This document shows, in pieces, positions 15,626-40,448 of a stretch of DNA of 64,000 nt; the first letter of the stretch is position 1; every line of letters begins with the position of its first letter. A model generated the notes under the pieces. The model did not search any database, was not told the origin of the DNA, and saw only the letters and a list, made by a program, of their open reading frames with translations. A program made the translations under genes and the position numbers. The DNA comes from Staphylococcus phage AH12, in sequence record OR455461.1, one strand, 5' to 3'.

Positions 15626-17101
15626 TTGGCTGAAGAAAAAGATAAAAAAGAGTCTAAAGAACAAGAACCTTTAAAAGTTGCTGACGATGATATGGCTTTA
15701 ATACCTCAAGCTGATGAGAAAAAAGGTGATTATGACTATCATGAATATGATCCTACTCAAAAAGATACTGGTGCTTTTATGGATGCTTTGGGTAATCAAA
15801 GACAAGCAACTGAATATTTAACAGATAAAAATGCTAAAGATAAAAAACAATTAAGAAATGTTAAAGGTGAACTAGATGTATTTGGAATGCCTATGTACTA
15901 TTCTAGTTTAGATGATCCTAATAGAAGAATATATAAAAGAACATTTGAATTAGATTTACCTTTAGTATTTATAATGCCGGGTATGCCTAAATTAAATGGT
16001 AAATTATTTGGTAAACCAGGAGAAGGTAAATTATGGAGTTTTGGTGAAGGAATGGATAGATTAGTAAACTCTGGGTTATCTTTAGTTGGTATCGGTAATA
16101 CTAAAGATGGTCGTATGATAAGCTTTGAACCTAAAATGGCTGAATATTATAAATATGTACAAACTATGGCTTCTCAAGTTCATGCATCAATGGGATTAAA
16201 AGGATCATTTGATCTAGGTGGATCTCTACAAGATGATAAAAACTATGGACTAGCTTACTATGCAGATAAATCAACTAGTATATCAGAATCTGCAATGCAT
16301 GAATATAATCAATCTGATATTGCTTCTCAAGTTAATAATAAAAACCAAGAAATACGAGAACAAAAAGAAATGGCTCGTATTGGAGGAGCTTCTATTTTAG
16401 GTAAAATTACAAGATCTATTAAAGATAGTGTTAATGATATGGTAGCAAATATGCCAGTTATTGGTGGTATTGTAGGTAACTTTATGGAACATTTAGATGG
16501 TGCAAGTATGTACTATCCCGATGTATGGATGAACTCGACATTCGATAGAACTTATAATCTAGAATTTAAATTCTATAGTGCTTATGGAGATCCTCAATCT
16601 ATCTTTGATAATGTATATTTACCATTCTTGTCACTATTAGTTTTAGCATTACCATTACAAGACTCAATTTTCTCTTATAAGCAACCATTTATTATTAGAG
16701 CTAATTGTCCTGGTAGATTTGAATGTAACACAGGTATAATAACTTCAATGAATATAGTTCGTGGTGAAGAGGGTACATGGACTGCAGATGGTTTCCCAAG
16801 AGAAATTACTGTATCTATTAATATTAGAGATATGTATCCAAACTTAATGGCATCAAAATCATTCCAACGTATGAAATTTAACACAGGATTATTATCTTAT
16901 ATTGATTGCTTAGCCGGAATTAGAAGGGATCAACTATCTATTATTGATAAAGCTCAAATTAATATGAAAACTCAATACTCTAGAAGTATGCAGGTAATTA
17001 AAGGAAGAGTCTTTCAACAACAAATTGATGATGCAATCTATGGATATAAATCCCAATATAATCCTCATCCAAATAGCCCGGGATTGAATATGTTTACTTA
17101 A
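15626..17101 (+). CDS. hypothetical structural protein, 491 aa
   Basis: TTG start with an AAAGGAAG RBS. Lies in the tail/virion module downstream of the giant proteins. Confidence 0.55.
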   Translation: MAEEKDKKESKEQEPLKVADDDMALIPQADEKKGDYDYHEYDPTQKDTGAFMDALGNQRQATEYLTDKNAKDKKQLRNVKGELDVFGMPMYYSSLDDPNRRIYKRTFELDLPLVFIMPGMPKLNGKLFGKPGEGKLWSFGEGMDRLVNSGLSLVGIGNTKDGRMISFEPKMAEYYKYVQTMASQVHASMGLKGSFDLGGSLQDDKNYGLAYYADKSTSISESAMHEYNQSDIASQVNNKNQEIREQKEMARIGGASILGKITRSIKDSVNDMVANMPVIGGIVGNFMEHLDGASMYYPDVWMNSTFDRTYNLEFKFYSAYGDPQSIFDNVYLPFLSLLVLALPLQDSIFSYKQPFIIRANCPGRFECNTGIITSMNIVRGEEGTWTADGFPREITVSINIRDMYPNLMASKSFQRMKFNTGLLSYIDCLAGIRRDQLSIIDKAQINMKTQYSRSMQVIKGRVFQQQIDDAIYGYKSQYNPHPNSPGLNMFT

Positions 17102-27494: not shown

Positions 27495-27656
27495 CATTTA
27501 TATTAACTATATGAAATTCATATAGATTAGACTATATCTTATACTATTAATAAGTATTATTATATTTAGTCGTTGAACAATCATCTTGATTGATGCTGAT
27601 TAAGTTTATAAACTTTTCCAGCAATTAATATTATTTATACTGAGCCATTAAAATTA
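27495..27656 (-). ncRNA. group I intron, 162 nt, ORF-less, in nrdE
   Basis: P AAUUGCUGGAAA, Q AAUCAGCAUC, R GUUCAACGACUAAAUAU and S AGAUAUAGUCU elements are present. P1 pairs exon CUGGGU with the guide sequence GCUCAG. P5, P6, P8 and P9 hairpins are present. The spliced junction YVNQLG|QRNGAGALYL matches the conserved RNR alpha region. Confidence 0.8.
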
Positions 27657-28403
27657 ACCCAGTTGATTTACATATGATAAAGTATCTTCAAATACTTTCA
27701 TAACTGGAACTACTCCTGAAGCAGCACCTTCAACACCTTTAATTGGATCATTATCAGCACGTAGATTACTTAAAGATACTCCTATTCCTCCACCACGTTT
27801 ACTTAATTGTGCCACATTAGAGATATTTCTATAAATAGATGATAAAGAATCCTCCATAGTTAATAAGAAACAACTTACTAACTCACCAGAACGTACTCTA
27901 CCTGCATTAAGAAATGTAGGTGTAGCTGGTTGGAAAGTACCTGTAATAATTTCATTAGCAATATCTCTAGCTAATTCTTCATCACCGTCAGCTAAGTATA
28001 AAGCTACAAATAAAATTCTATCTTCATATAGTTCTAATAAGATTTCCCCTGCATCATCTTTCATTGCATACTGTTCATAGAATTTTTTAGCTCCTAATAA
28101 ACGAGTAAAACGATGTTTATAAGCCATTAATTCTTTCATTAATCCTTTAATAAATTCAAAATTATAGTTATTGATCATATCTCCATCAATATAATCATTA
28201 TTAACTAAGTAATTAATTTTTTCCTTATATGTTTTAAAATATCTTACATTCTTATTAACTTTTTCATCGAAGTATTTACTAACAGAAGCTAACTCAAATT
28301 CTAGATCTAAATTACCGTCTTTTAATTGTGAACCTCTTGAATTCAATTCATTGTATGAATAATCTTTGAACTTTTCTGAGTTTAAGTCTATTTCTTTTGT
28401 CAT
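27657..28403 (-). CDS. nrdE: ribonucleotide reductase large subunit, exon 1 (N-terminal 249 aa)
   Basis: N-terminal RNR alpha region (ATPTFLNAGR..., GGGIGVSLS). Ends in GGU, directly before the intron-borne UAA. Confidence 0.85.
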
Positions 28404-32403: not shown

Positions 32404-32559
32404 CAAATTTATTTATTCTTTATAATTATATAAAGTTTAGACTATATCACAATAATTATAATAATTATTATCCATTATTTAGTCGTTGAACATCATTTAG
32501 ATGATGCTGATTAATTTTATAATATTTCAGCAATTAAATAGAAAAGCCCAGTTAATTTT
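32404..32559 (-). ncRNA. group I intron, about 156 nt, ORF-less, terminase intron 2
   Basis: P, Q, R and S core elements (minus-strand rc of ...cagcaattaaa..., gatgctgatta, tttagtcgttgaac, agactatatc) plus P6, P8 and P9 hairpins. The 3' end AAAUUUG| is firm. The 5' splice site after CCU (P of TTTP) is inferred from frame and a short P1 (GCCU/GGGC), so it is less certain. Confidence 0.65.
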
Positions 32560-32715
32560 AGGCGTAGTTGTAATTAGAAGTCCATAAGGAGTTCCGTTTC
32601 TTTTAGCAATTGCAGAAGCTGTGGAGTTAGCTGGACGCATGGCCTCAAACATTGTTTGATTATGTTTAATAAATGCCCACTCATCTAGCCAGAATAATGG
32701 CACAGTACCACCTCT
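32560..32715 (-). CDS. terL: terminase large subunit, exon 2 (Walker B, motif III)
   Basis: LFWLDEWAFI aligns with T4 gp17 MIYIDECAFI, followed by the ITTTP coupling motif. Confidence 0.75.
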
Positions 32716-32921
32716 CATTTTTCGTTAACTATATGAATTTCATATAGATCAGACTATATCTTAACAATTTCAATGATATTAATATTTAGTCGTTGAACTA
32801 CTATTTTAAGTAGATGCTGATTTATTTAATGATTTTCTCAGCAATTAATTAATTTTATAGCGAGCTAAGGTTATAAATTAATTTTTAAAAATAATTTCCA
32901 TATATGCCATGGAATGATTTA
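32716..32921 (-). ncRNA. group I intron, 206 nt, ORF-less, terminase intron 1
   Basis: P1 pairs exon GCGGGU with the guide sequence GCUCGC. P, Q, R and S are present, and P9 is CUAUAUGAAAUUCAUAUAG. The intron ends ...AAAAUG|, and its omega-G is the G of the ATG the ORF finder reports at 32718. Confidence 0.8.
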
Positions 32922-33569
32922 ACCCGCTTTATTTGCTTGCTCTTTATTGTTTGGAGGACTGACTGTCTTAATAGTGTTATTATTGGATGCTAATCTAAAT
33001 TCATTTTCAGCATCTTTATCATTCTTATCACCAAAATTTGCCATCACATAATCCGGTAAACATTTTTCTTTAAATAAGTTCTTAAGACGTTTTAAATTCT
33101 CCACTGTATCAGCATAAGCTTTATGTGTAAATAACATTGTATAGTTATTACCTACTAATAACATAATCCATGAATAATAACATACTGCAGAATATGTTTT
33201 ATAGTGCTGACGAGGTAACATTATTGCAGTATCTAAGTTATGCAACATACAGAATGTCATAGCCAAGTTACCTCTATGAAGTTCATACATTACTTTTCCA
33301 CCTGGAACAGGAACTCTAATAACTTCTCTTAAATAAAACCATATATTAAGTTTAGCTTCCCTAATAACACGAGTTTTCATTTCATTATCTAAATCTTCAT
33401 CCCAAGGATCAACACCAATTAATTTCTTATCATATAGAGTTAATGGTAAACCATAATTTTGTATATTATTGTCTTTAAGTTCTTTAGCAACTTTTAAAAA
33501 GCTTATATTATTAGTCTTATAATCGTAATAAACTTTTTTCTTTAATTTTGTTATAGCCATAATCTTCAT
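32922..33569 (-). CDS. terL: terminase large subunit, exon 1 (ATPase N-terminus)
   Basis: LPRQHYKT is a deviant Walker A (compare T4 SRQLGKT). Ends in GGU, directly before the intron-borne UAA. Confidence 0.75.
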
Positions 33570-38289: not shown

Positions 38290-38376
38290 TAATCTAATAA
38301 AAGATTGTTAAATTCAGAAGAATAACATAGAAATATTCTTAATTTACAATCAAAATTTGAAAGGAAGTATAAATAA

Positions 38377-38599
38377 ATGTCTAAAGATATTAAAGCTTAC
38401 ATTATTAATGAATCTAATACAACTTCTCAACCAGAAGTAGTTCAAGATAATAATAAATCAGTTAGATTCATTGCTGAGTTACAAGAAGCTGATAGACAAA
38501 ACCGTAATGGTCGTGTTTATCGTAAAGATGTTATCCAAAGTGGTTTAGATAGTCCAGTAGTACAAGAAAAATTAGCAAGAAGAACTTTTTATGGTGAGT
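38377..38599 (+). CDS. prohead-protease-like protein, exon 1
   Basis: Ends ...RTFYGE plus one further nt. The NGRVY and GE-GHP segments resemble T4 gp21-type prohead proteases; this rests on recollection, not on a search. The TAG at 38602 is intron sequence. Confidence 0.55.
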
Positions 38600-38753
38600 T
38601 TTAGGTTAAAATGGCTCACGTTAAATTATATTAATTGCTGAAATCTTATTTAAAGTAATCAGCATCAACTTAATACAAGTTGTTCAACGACTAAATATAT
38701 AACCTAGATGATATAGTCTAATCTTTATTAAAATAATAAAGAATAATAATTTG
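38600..38753 (+). ncRNA. group I intron, 154 nt, protease intron 1
   Basis: P1 pairs exon GUGAGU with the guide sequence GGCUCAC. P UUAAUUGCUGAAA, Q AAUCAGCAUC, R GUUCAACGACUAAAUAU and S GAUAUAGUCU are present. Ends ...AAUUUG|. Confidence 0.75.
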
Positions 38754-39013
38754 CAGGTCATCCTTTAAGTGATGAACCTAAACGTCAAATGTATATTGAT
38801 CAACGTAATATTTCTCATATTATCACTAGAACTTGGTGGAATGGTAATAAATTAATGGGAGAAGTAGAAACAGCTCAAACATCAGCTGGTAAGGATATGA
38901 AAGGTTTAATTGGACAAAAATCTGATGTATCTTTCTCAATGCGTGGTTTTAGTAAAATAGAAAGAAAACCTAATGGTGAAGTAGAAGTTACTAAACCTTT
39001 AAGATTAATCTGT
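38754..39013 (+). CDS. prohead-protease-like protein, exon 2
   Basis: Reads (S)GHPLSDEPKRQ...SMRG...KPLRLIC. Ends UGU, directly before the intron-borne UAA. Confidence 0.55.
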
Positions 39014-39202
39014 TAAATTATAGCAGCTTTATATAGTGATATATAATGAAAAAGAATATTAATTGCTAAGAAGTTTAATTAAGCCAATTAGCATCAACTT
39101 AATACAAGTTGTTCAACGACTAAATATATTCGCTCTTACTAAGAGTATGATATAGTCTCGTCTATATGGAAACCATATAGCTAAGATGTACGTATGACTG
39201 GG
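39014..39202 (+). ncRNA. group I intron, 189 nt, protease intron 2a, with a P2 hairpin
   Basis: Variant P (UUGCUAAG) and Q (UUAGCAUC) carry compensatory changes. R, S, P8 and P9 (CUAUAUGG/CCAUAUAG) are present. Ends ...GAUGUACG|. Confidence 0.65.
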
Positions 39203-39213
39203 TAAAAAATTAT
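39203..39213 (+). CDS. inferred 11-nt micro-exon (UAUGACUGGGU; Y-D-W plus 2 nt) between the tandem introns
   Basis: Bounded by the 3' end of intron 2a and a CUGGGU| 5' splice site, which pairs with guide sequence GCUUAG of intron 2b. The four exon lengths (223, 260, 11, 349) sum to 843, a multiple of 3, and the frame is restored only if the micro-exon is included. Confidence 0.55.
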
Positions 39214-39362
39214 TGCTTAGTATAAATAATATTAATTGCTGGAAATCTTTATTAAGATAATCAGCATCGGATTAAATTCCGTTCAACGACTAAATATATT
39301 ACCTAATATAAATTAGGAAGATATAGTCTCGTCTATATGAAAATCATATAGTTAAGATAACG
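39214..39362 (+). ncRNA. group I intron, 149 nt, protease intron 2b; near-identical 5' half to the nrdE intron
   Basis: Guide sequence UGCUUAG, then UAUAAAUAAUAUUAAUUGCUGGAAA, which is identical to the nrdE intron. Q, R and S are present, and P9 is CUAUAUGAAAAUCAUAUAG. Ends ...GAUAACG|. Confidence 0.7.
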
Positions 39363-39711
39363 TGTAATTCCATCACATCAAGATTCTTATATCCAAAATA
39401 TAATTTCAGAGAATCATAATAATTACAATACTAGTGATTTACAAATGGTTAATGAATCAATTGATATGTTTTCTAACGGTAAAGTTACAGAATTTTCTCC
39501 TAGAGAAGTTTTAACTTATATTAAAGAAAATTCAGATAATATCAAATATATCGCTGAAGATATGGGATTTGATAAAGCTGATGAATCTAATATCATTTAT
39601 GATAAAGGATCTCAAATAGCTTCAATTAAAGAAAGTAATAAAACTATTAAAGTTTTCTTAGAAGAATCTGTTCTTAATGGACTTGATGATTTCTATAGAA
39701 ACTTTAAATAA
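39363..39711 (+). CDS. prohead-protease-like protein, exon 3
   Basis: Begins (V)VIPSHQDS..., which may carry a D-x-V-x-x-P-S catalytic-serine context. The in-frame open stretch starts just after the UAA at 39358-60. The ORF track reports only the part from the Met at 39445. Confidence 0.55.
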
Positions 39712-39734
39712 TATGTATGGAAGTGATATAGTTT

Positions 39735-40448
39735 ATGATAACTAATACAGAAGTACTTAATTATATAGAACGTGATACAGGATTTCTCTTTAATGAGTTA
39801 GAACTAAATCCTGATGAGATTATTAAAACAGTAGAAAGATTTACAATTCCTACTTTTAGTAAATTCCATCCTAAACAAGAAAGAATAGTAGTTAAACCTG
39901 AAGATAAAGTAGAAGGAACTCAGAATGTTTATTATATTGATTCACCAAACCCGATAGTTAATATTAATAGAGTGATTGGTGCTAATAACAATATTTCTAA
40001 TTTAACTGGTTATGCTGGGAGTATGAGTCCTTATGCAGGTTTTATGATGGGTTCACCTATTGACTCTCAAATGATGGCAGATTTAATGGCAATCAATTTA
40101 AATCCATCTACATTTAGATATCTTCATCCTAATAAAATAGAGATAATGAATGGATCTGTTATGAGTACAACTAATCTATTAATAATTGCAAATACTTATC
40201 ATGATAAACATTTTGGTTCAATACCAAATAATATGCATGATTACTTTTTAGAATTAGCTTCATATGATGTTCAAATGTCATTATACTCTATGAGAGGTAG
40301 ATTTCAAAATTTACAAACTACTTTTGGTGAATTGAATCTAAATATGGATGATTTAAGAGATGCTAGAGAAAAAAGAAGAGAATTAGTTGAAAAAATGGAA
40401 AATAACTCTATTTATAATTCCAATAGAAAAAAATTATTTTTCGGATAA
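39735..40448 (+). CDS. hypothetical protein, 237 aa
   Basis: ORF track entry immediately downstream of the protease gene, followed by a terminator. Confidence 0.5.
   Translation: MITNTEVLNYIERDTGFLFNELELNPDEIIKTVERFTIPTFSKFHPKQERIVVKPEDKVEGTQNVYYIDSPNPIVNINRVIGANNNISNLTGYAGSMSPYAGFMMGSPIDSQMMADLMAINLNPSTFRYLHPNKIEIMNGSVMSTTNLLIIANTYHDKHFGSIPNNMHDYFLELASYDVQMSLYSMRGRFQNLQTTFGELNLNMDDLRDAREKRRELVEKMENNSIYNSNRKKLFFG

Follow-up and report, generated by a model that had tools for sequence, protein, structure and literature searches.

Short exons lying between group I introns are known already from mitochondria and from one Bacillus phage. Mini-exons and micro-exons flanked by group I introns have been described in fungal and placozoan mitochondrial cox1 and in rnl (PMC10352661, PMC12308204, PMC5436844), mini-exons between mitochondrial introns 'occur regularly' (PMC10352661), and exons of 1–3 nucleotides (nt) have been reported. 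The locus described here lies in a 64,000-nt stretch of Staphylococcus phage AH12 (sequence record OR455461.1; hereafter the window, whose first letter is position 1), in which the prohead protease gene very probably carries two independent tandem group I introns, 2a and 2b, flanking a retained exon of 11 nt. The locus resembles the mitochondrial genes in that an exon of fewer than four codons is flanked by group I introns, and in that annotation pipelines, which routinely miss mini-exons, let conserved residues vanish from the predicted protein. The organellar introns, however, are usually large, maturase-dependent and equipped with an open reading frame (ORF), whereas those of the window are ribozymes of about 160–180 nt without an ORF and reside in a virulent bacteriophage. 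An earlier note on this DNA considered micro-exons of this size to be rare, which holds for phages but not in general, as organellar mini-exons are regular (PMC10352661).

Sequencing of cDNA from Bacillus phage phiNIT1 has revealed a 'small exon between two introns' (PMC11878797). At both loci a small exon flanked by two group I introns escaped protein-based exon prediction; they differ in gene and phage group, the phiNIT1 exon is based on cDNA whereas the one described here is predicted from the DNA, and the protease locus has, across related phages, a series of alleles with no intron, one intron and different pairs of introns. Phage Twort is similar in being a Staphylococcus phage with several small ORF-less group I introns in a structural gene, where exon skipping is possible as the guides of neighbouring introns are compatible. 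The window locus is distinct from Twort in that the internal exon is 11 nt long (6 nt in phage LY01) and lies inside a predicted catalytic motif, in that the introns are shorter (154–184 nt), and in that they are hosted by a jumbo phage. A review of intron mobility in phage genes covers homing of the collaborative or trans type and the competition of intron sites that lie next to each other (PMC3984707). Such homing systems share with the protease locus the presence of ORF-less introns at a highly conserved target, same-site relatives with an endonuclease ORF and several tightly clustered insertion sites, but here no endonuclease for the site is identified in the window, and we infer the mode of mobility. 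Introns of MarsHill, Madawaska and Machias, intron-rich AR9-like jumbo phages of the same clade as the window phage, have been surveyed by Korn et al., who reported that the prohead protease gene is disrupted by introns and that its exon number varies between phages; exon prediction there relied solely on aligning proteins to AR9, and Machias was given three exons (bioRxiv 10.1101/2020.12.14.422802). What was missed in Machias, and is recognised here, is the micro-exon and the fact that the insert consists of two introns in tandem.

The prohead protease gene and its 11-nt exon

Alignment to the intronless gene of phage PALS_2 together with translation places the prohead protease gene at 38377-39711 on the plus strand, which is the strand of all exons and introns of the gene, and divides it into four exons. 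Exon 1 (38377..38599, 223 nt) ends in ...GGTGAGT, the final T being the first nucleotide of codon Ser75, and is followed by intron 1 (38600..38753, 154 nt), assigned to group I by the Rfam model RF00028, an nhmmer profile, a P1 helix of 6 bp, a terminal G and the alignment. Exon 2 (38754..39013, 260 nt) holds Ser136 of the FSMRG motif and ends in ...TTAATCTGT at 39013 on codon Cys161 (TGT), the following triplet being TAA. The interval 39014-39362 consists exactly of intron 2a (39014..39192, 179 nt, at position 483|484 of the coding sequence, CDS), the micro-exon TATGACTGGGT (39193..39203, 11 nt) and intron 2b (39204..39362, 159 nt, CDS 494|495). Intron 2a ends in ...GCTAAGATGTACG at 39192 and intron 2b in ...GATAACG; both are assigned to group I by RF00028, nhmmer, folding, covariation and the P1 and P10 pairings, and the micro-exon is identified by its in-register PALS_2 match, its conservation and the pairings. 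Exon 3 (39363..39711, 349 nt including the stop codon) opens with TGTAATTCC at 39363, giving T|GTA ATT CCA (..V VIPSH).

The micro-exon codes for Tyr162, Asp163, Trp164 and the first two nucleotides of Val165. Translation of the joined exons (223 + 260 + 11 + 349 = 843 nt) yields an unbroken protein of 280 amino acids (aa), which has 93% identity with the intact protein of PALS_2 and reads ...LICYDWVVIPSH across the junctions. When the 11 nt are omitted, the remaining 832 nt are frameshifted immediately after Cys161. If the transcript is read unspliced, an in-frame UAA opens intron 2a, and reading on into an unspliced intron 2b meets a stop after seven codons.

The intronless alleles agree with this division. 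The protease gene of PALS_2 is uninterrupted, is 843 nt long and encodes 280 aa; it reads ...KPLRLICYDWVVIPSHQDS... with ...RLIC-YDWV-VIPSH in the protein, and at the nucleotide level ...RLICYDWVVIPSH, with TATGATTGGGT at the position of the micro-exon. When it is aligned to the window, three long blocks match and one stretch, the counterpart of TATGACTGGGT, is left unaligned; the micro-exon and TATGATTGGGT are identical at 10 of 11 positions, in register and exactly at the alignment gap. The gene is also intronless in UFV_DC4 and SA1, and in all three phages the 11 nt sit in place. The exon arithmetic of the earlier note and its placement of a micro-exon between the two introns are thus borne out by natural alleles, and excision of the introns restores a reading frame colinear with that of PALS_2.

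The four-exon product matches Pfam Peptidase_S77 (PF03420) over residues 37-179 with 36.3 bits, the cutoff being 27, and a PHROG entry named 'head maturation protease' (E = 3e-25). His77 (GHP), Ser136 (FSMRG), Asp163 and Val165 are invariant in 12 homologues and Trp164 is nearly so, and no motif of the enzyme is better conserved than YDWV. A family profile aligned to T4 gp21 (PDB code 5JBL; E = 7e-10) places His77 and Ser136 on two alanines of the crystallised chain, which are taken to be engineered inactivating substitutions, and Asp163 on the Asp of the GVDAVWGPS motif. The gp21-type triad has been reported as His-Ser-Asp (PMC5694885). Since Asp163 is invariant and aligns with the gp21 Asp, the catalytic Asp of a triad His77/Ser136/Asp163 is most probably encoded within the micro-exon, and in this triad the roles of the three residues are predicted from conservation and from the gp21 alignment. 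The micro-exon had been described as adjoining a putative catalytic serine, and this part of the earlier note needs correction. Ser169 of VIPSH is invariant, but the gp21 nucleophile aligns with Ser136. Intron 1 is placed two codons before catalytic His77.

Intron cores, guide pairings and predicted splicing

In a local search of 1.5 kb, RF00028 (253 model positions, gathering score 50 bits) matches intron 2a at 39004-39180 (45.5 bits, E = 5e-10), intron 2b at 39194-39351 (41.6 bits, E = 8e-9) and intron 1 (32.6 bits, E = 4e-6). Introns 2a and 2b are without the long P8 loop and other peripheral parts of the model. A profile of the intron family, searched with nhmmer, gives E = 3e-41 for intron 2a, 2e-33 for intron 2b and 2e-34 for intron 1. 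Covariation was assessed on 12 introns, taken from the window and from related phages, aligned with MAFFT and given a hand-written P3–P9 structure including the P3/P7 pseudoknot: 94.6% of this structure is paired and 20 of its 38 pairs show compensatory changes, values reached in none of 500 shuffles, and slid-register controls are only 28–45% paired. In agreement with this, RNAalifold independently gives P4, P6, P7 and P9 on the same alignment, the minimum-free-energy folds of both introns recover P1, P4–P5, P6, P8 and P9, and the fold of intron 2b has z = −4.3. All 10 introns examined follow a U and end in G, with a P1 of 4–7 bp and a U-G pair at the splice site. Boundaries, RF00028 matches and covariation together confirm the two tandem cores first noticed in the interval. 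No homing-endonuclease ORF is present within the two introns, whose longest ORFs are 30 aa (2a) and 26 aa (2b), and their opposite strand shows nothing notable.

In intron 2a, the P10 guide TTATA (39018-39022) is followed by the guide sequence GCAG (39023-39026), P2 (39029-39046), P3 (39054-39059 / 39126-39131), P4 (39064-39069 / 39088-39093), P5 (39073-39084), P6 (39095-39111), P7 (39118-39122 / 39153-39157), P8 (39133-39145), P9 (39162-39180) and the terminal G at 39192. Intron 2b, which has no P2, is laid out on the same strand with the P10 guide AATTAT (39208-39213), the guide sequence GCTTAGT (39215-39221), P3 (39227-39232 / 39296-39301), P4 (39237-39242 / 39261-39266), P5 (39245-39258), P6 (39268-39281), P7 (39288-39292 / 39324-39328), P8 (39302-39317), P9 (39333-39351) and the terminal G at 39362. 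Both thus have the U-G wobble in P1, the omega-G and the P10 of group I introns. In intron 1, the guide GCTCAC pairs with the exon sequence GTGAGT in a P1 of 6 bp; this intron has no P8 hairpin, only AACCTAGATG lying between the 3' strand of P3 and the stretch into P7. Intron 1 of Madawaska and of LY01 is likewise without P8, and the PB50 homologue keeps it. Cores of 154–184 nt are very compact for group I and may be of interest for ribozyme structure and engineering.

The guide pairings engage almost the whole micro-exon, since its nucleotides 1–5 (UAUGA) pair with the P10 guide UUAUA of intron 2a and its nucleotides 5–11 form P1 of intron 2b. P10 comprises 5 bp in intron 2a and 6 bp in intron 2b. 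Both pairings covary among phages: P10 at the 483 site is UAUGA/UUAUA in the window and UACGA/UUGUA in LY01, and P1 at the 494 site is AUUGGGU/GCUCAAU in the intron of contig L013 and ACUGGGU with GCUCAGU or GCUUAGU in that of L014 and in the window. These pairings suggest a scheme in which the protease gene would be transcribed with three small ORF-less group I introns, 2a and 2b being independent ribozymes only 11 nt apart. Each intron would fold its own P3–P9 core and pair its own internal guide with the exon upstream of the splice site, the splice-site U forming a U-G wobble with the guide in both 2a and 2b. Guanosine attack would cut each intron after this U, P10 would align the 3' exon, and ligation would follow the terminal G, so that the micro-exon would double as the 3' exon of 2a and the 5' exon of 2b. 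Only the removal of both introns with retention of the micro-exon would restore Tyr162-Asp163-Trp164-Val165; skipping of the micro-exon would cause a frameshift and truncate the protein after Cys161. We infer autocatalysis, the order of the two reactions and the way in which the introns moved from these features. The arrangement offers a natural test system of two adjacent group I ribozymes sharing one very short exon, in which the contest between P10 of one intron and P1 of its neighbour, the splicing order and the skipping of exons may be studied with natural variants to hand that have no intron, one intron or different pairs.

Several observations weigh against the reading of the interval as two active introns around a retained exon. 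Both introns score below the gathering score of RF00028, and a scan of the whole window with Rfam gives no match at the gathering threshold and none in E-value mode either, the latter because the filters tighten with search size. Folded by itself, intron 2a shows no unusual stability (z = −1.15). P1 of intron 2a (CUGU with GCAG) has only four exon base pairs, and three of the seven pairs in P1 of intron 2b (ACUGGGU with GCUUAGU) are G-U. No intron at 483|484 alone was found among the alleles examined, the assignment of Asp163 as a probable catalytic residue draws on an alignment and a statement in the secondary literature, and the excision of 2a and 2b from the protease transcript is itself predicted from the DNA letters. 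Finally, the P10 guide of intron 2a pairs over 7 bp with exon 3 compared with 5 bp with the micro-exon.

Because of this last difference, some exon skipping is plausible, and one may ask whether, with both introns genuine, the micro-exon is frequently left out by joining the 5' site of 2a to the 3' site of 2b, the truncated inactive protein serving as a control of dosage or timing. Phage group I introns are known to cause such skipping in a gene of SIOphi and in orf142 of Twort (PMC11878797), and the P4 and P7 strands, which are identical in the 2a and 2b cores, could favour cross-folding. The match of the guide to exon 3, however, is short, AT-rich and dependent on G-U pairs, so that it may be fortuitous; the skipped product is out of frame and without the catalytic Asp and the entire C-terminal half; the protease is presumably essential, yet the phage is viable; and no sign of selection for skipping is seen. 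Frequent, regulatory skipping therefore appears unlikely compared with regular retention of the 11 nt.

Insertion sites in related phages and the origin of the introns

Over 38300-39800, the window is 99.7% identical to the Staphylococcus jumbo phage Machias (MW349128), in which the counterpart of the protease gene is annotated as 'prohead core scaffold and protease', and 87–92% identical to LY01, Madawaska, MarsHill, PALS_2, S6, UFV_DC4, SA1 and PB50. The window phage is a Machias-like jumbo phage, distinct from Machias itself; it is related to Bacillus phage AR9 and is not Twort-like. The whole window is 93–97% identical to Machias, with several indels involving introns or endonuclease genes. 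Because the protease gene and its introns (38400-39300) are 100% identical to those of Machias and the flanks only 91–98%, the intron-laden allele as a whole may have been recently exchanged or converted between the two lineages, as this contrast suggests.

Among the relatives, three insertion sites lie within 11 nt, at CDS 483|484, 489|490 and 494|495. Madawaska and PB50 have a single intron at 489|490 (TACGAT|TGGGTA). LY01 combines a homologue of 2a at 483|484 (86% identical) with the 489|490 intron, and its tandem introns (L004 2186-2556) enclose a 6-nt exon, TACGAT (L004:2367-2372); the 483 intron is therefore seen with two different downstream partners, one in the window and one in LY01. 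In LY01, the 6-nt exon is claimed both by the P10 helix of the first intron (UACGAU with AUUGUA) and by the P1 helix of the second (CGAU with GUCG), so that the splicing-competent forms of the two helices would not be simultaneous and strictly sequential splicing is predicted. The sole intron of the gene in MarsHill and S6 occupies the site of intron 1, is 1.17 kb long and contains a gene for a LAGLIDADG endonuclease.

Contigs from IMG/VR and from metagenomes, in which the protease is only about 42–57% identical, carry lone introns at the same sites, at 494|495 in L013/L037, L014, L044 and L039/L040 and at 489|490 in L015-17, and the site beside the catalytic His is also occupied in L036, L041 and L044. 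The 494|495 introns of these distant uncultured phages are larger (about 380–410 nt, or with an ORF) and have the guides GCUCAAU or GCUCAG. That of L013 exceeds the gathering score of RF00028 with 75 bits, and that of L039 (2058-2669) carries a 203-aa ORF matching PHROG 559 'HNH endonuclease' (E = 7e-20). Scans of IMG/VR with exact patterns for the 2a junction and for the 2b junction gave no match. Judging by these alleles, 489 and 494 are established insertion sites, because single introns occur there in distant phages. Lone introns at neighbouring sites in other phages and the different pair in LY01 strongly support the view that introns 2a and 2b are independent of each other. Three sites thus cluster at the Asp motif over a span of 11 nt, a further recurrent one is found two codons from the catalytic His, and the recurrence of both motif sites across distant phages points to introns that repeatedly target catalytic motifs. 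Most likely, the conserved motif would have served as a recurrent intron target, and introns at 483, 489 and 494 would have been combined by homing or recombination. The micro-exon is noteworthy for its size, its catalytic content and this natural allelic series.

Intron 2b has a paralogue within the window, a group I intron of 162 nt on the minus strand (27495..27656), recognised by sequence comparison and pairing, in a gene called nrdE after the annotation of the Machias gene. The two introns share the 5' exon heptamer ACTGGGT, the guide being GCTCAGT in nrdE and GCTTAGT in 2b, and a 25-nt string, TATAAATAATATTAATTGCTGGAAA, is identical in both. From the guide through P4 there is one mismatch in 31 nt. 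The CTGGGT| junction, its pairing with the guide at 39215-39221 and the identical downstream sequence were all correctly recognised in the earlier note. Near-identity of the two introns as wholes, which it had also claimed, is confined to the segment from the guide to P4, as overall identity is about 78% and P5, P6 and P8 differ; a one-base shift in the sequences compared for this figure affects it negligibly.

From this near-identity a recent transposition into a CUGGGU site had been proposed, in which 2b would have arrived by reverse splicing of the nrdE intron into a fortuitous target. The shared heptamer ACUGGGU, the near-identical guide and the single mismatch from the guide through P4 speak for it, and the flanking exons are unrelated outside the heptamer, which suits guide-directed more than endonuclease-directed integration (PMC3984707). 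The overall identity of about 78% speaks against it, however, and the near-identical 5' segment could equally come from recombination between paralogous introns. Moreover, larger introns sit at 494|495 in four or more distant lineages of phages, and an HNH-endonuclease-like ORF is present in one of these introns, so that the site looks like an old, established cognate site and a recent transfer is unsupported. The proposal is accordingly doubtful; the pattern fits a guide-directed (reverse-splicing) relatedness of 2b and the nrdE intron at some past time, of the kind discussed in PMC3984707.

Annotation of the gene and the mini-intron family

In GenBank, the Machias protease (QQO92457.1) is given as three joined CDS pieces that produce a protein of 277 aa without the micro-exon and with the 3' junction placed 2 nt too early, giving ...RLIC-R-VIPSH. 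Such a model would treat 39014-39362 as a single intervening sequence of 349 nt, either one intron or a twintron, and the 7-bp pairing of the 2a P10 guide with exon 3 could be counted in its favour. Excision of the whole interval with group I boundaries, after U and ending in G, nevertheless leaves a frameshifted CDS of 832 nt, and the GenBank junction requires an intron ending in ...GATAA instead of G and drops the invariant Asp163, Trp164 and Val165. In addition, the 11 nt are exon sequence in the intronless alleles, the two complete cores are adjacent and not nested, as they would be in a twintron, and each core is found alone or with another partner in other phages. A single intron or twintron, already set aside in the earlier note, is hence hardly credible. 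Equally implausible is that the gene is a decaying pseudogene with non-splicing repeats, as the missing P8 of intron 1 and the Rfam scores below the gathering score might suggest, given that the four exons form a perfect 280-aa frame 93% identical to PALS_2 with all catalytic residues present, that compensatory changes keep the ribozyme helices, and that Machias, with an essentially identical protease gene, is an isolated propagating phage.

The reading with two introns and a retained micro-exon corrects the public annotation, in which QQO92457.1 is without the invariant YDWV motif and its probable catalytic Asp, and the same type of error occurs in at least one other Machias gene. Phage genes can evidently conceal exons of 6–16 nt, which are missed by exon prediction from protein alignment. 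Exon fragments of the protease have been deposited as separate ORFs in PB50 (L007 2578-3764) and LY01 (L004 1549-2910), and in PB50 two of them are misnamed 'terminase large subunit' and 'homing endonuclease'.

Mini group I introns without an ORF (154–206 nt) make up one family with six copies in the window, which the family profile finds at 27495-27656 (minus strand), 32404-32559 (minus strand), 32716-32921 (minus strand) and within 38600-39362 (plus strand). Two conserved strings of the core, TCAACGACTAAATATA and GATATAGTCT, mark the same six elements; the window has six occurrences of each, where 0.16 and 0.36 would be expected. All six copies fall below the gathering score of RF00028, so that default Rfam annotation is blind to them and such mini-introns are overlooked. 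Rfam found no introns in UFV_DC4 according to the genome paper of that phage, a report consistent with default tools missing such mini-introns.

A census of Machias with the family profile, starting at 26 kb, yielded 31 hits up to 274 kb, of which several are arranged in tandem. A second micro-exon, of 16 nt, ACTCAAGAAGGTGGGT, lies there between two mini-introns (L023, Machias 164560-165020) in the gene for the virion RNA polymerase beta-prime (mid-domain), where it is colinear with intronless PALS_2; GenBank gives this gene two exons and misses the 16-nt one. A candidate exon of 18 nt, ACTTACATGTTAAGAGGT, occurs in the virion RNA polymerase beta N-terminal gene (L025, Machias ~243400-244080).

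A broader scenario, which we regard as improbable, is that mini-introns proliferate within the genome by reverse splicing into U-ending sites, perhaps aided by a phage reverse transcriptase, that repeated hits on catalytic motifs create micro-exons of 6, 11, 16 and possibly 18 nt, and that full use of the exon by the guides would force ordered splicing and let skipping control the protease. Machias has an RNA-directed DNA polymerase gene at 219310-220863, outside the window, and such a gene is also present in MarsHill and Madawaska (Korn et al., bioRxiv 10.1101/2020.12.14.422802); a role of this polymerase in spreading mini-introns by reverse splicing is pure speculation.

Compared with Machias, the window is shorter by about 1.6 kb near 16526, in a virion protein gene where Machias has an intron with a TnpB-like transposase gene, and by about 1 kb in nrdE (27774-27787), where Machias has an intron with an HNH endonuclease gene. 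The large terminase gene (32407-32962) has 555 nt in the window at a place that spans about 3.25 kb in Machias and there includes a gene for a homing endonuclease.

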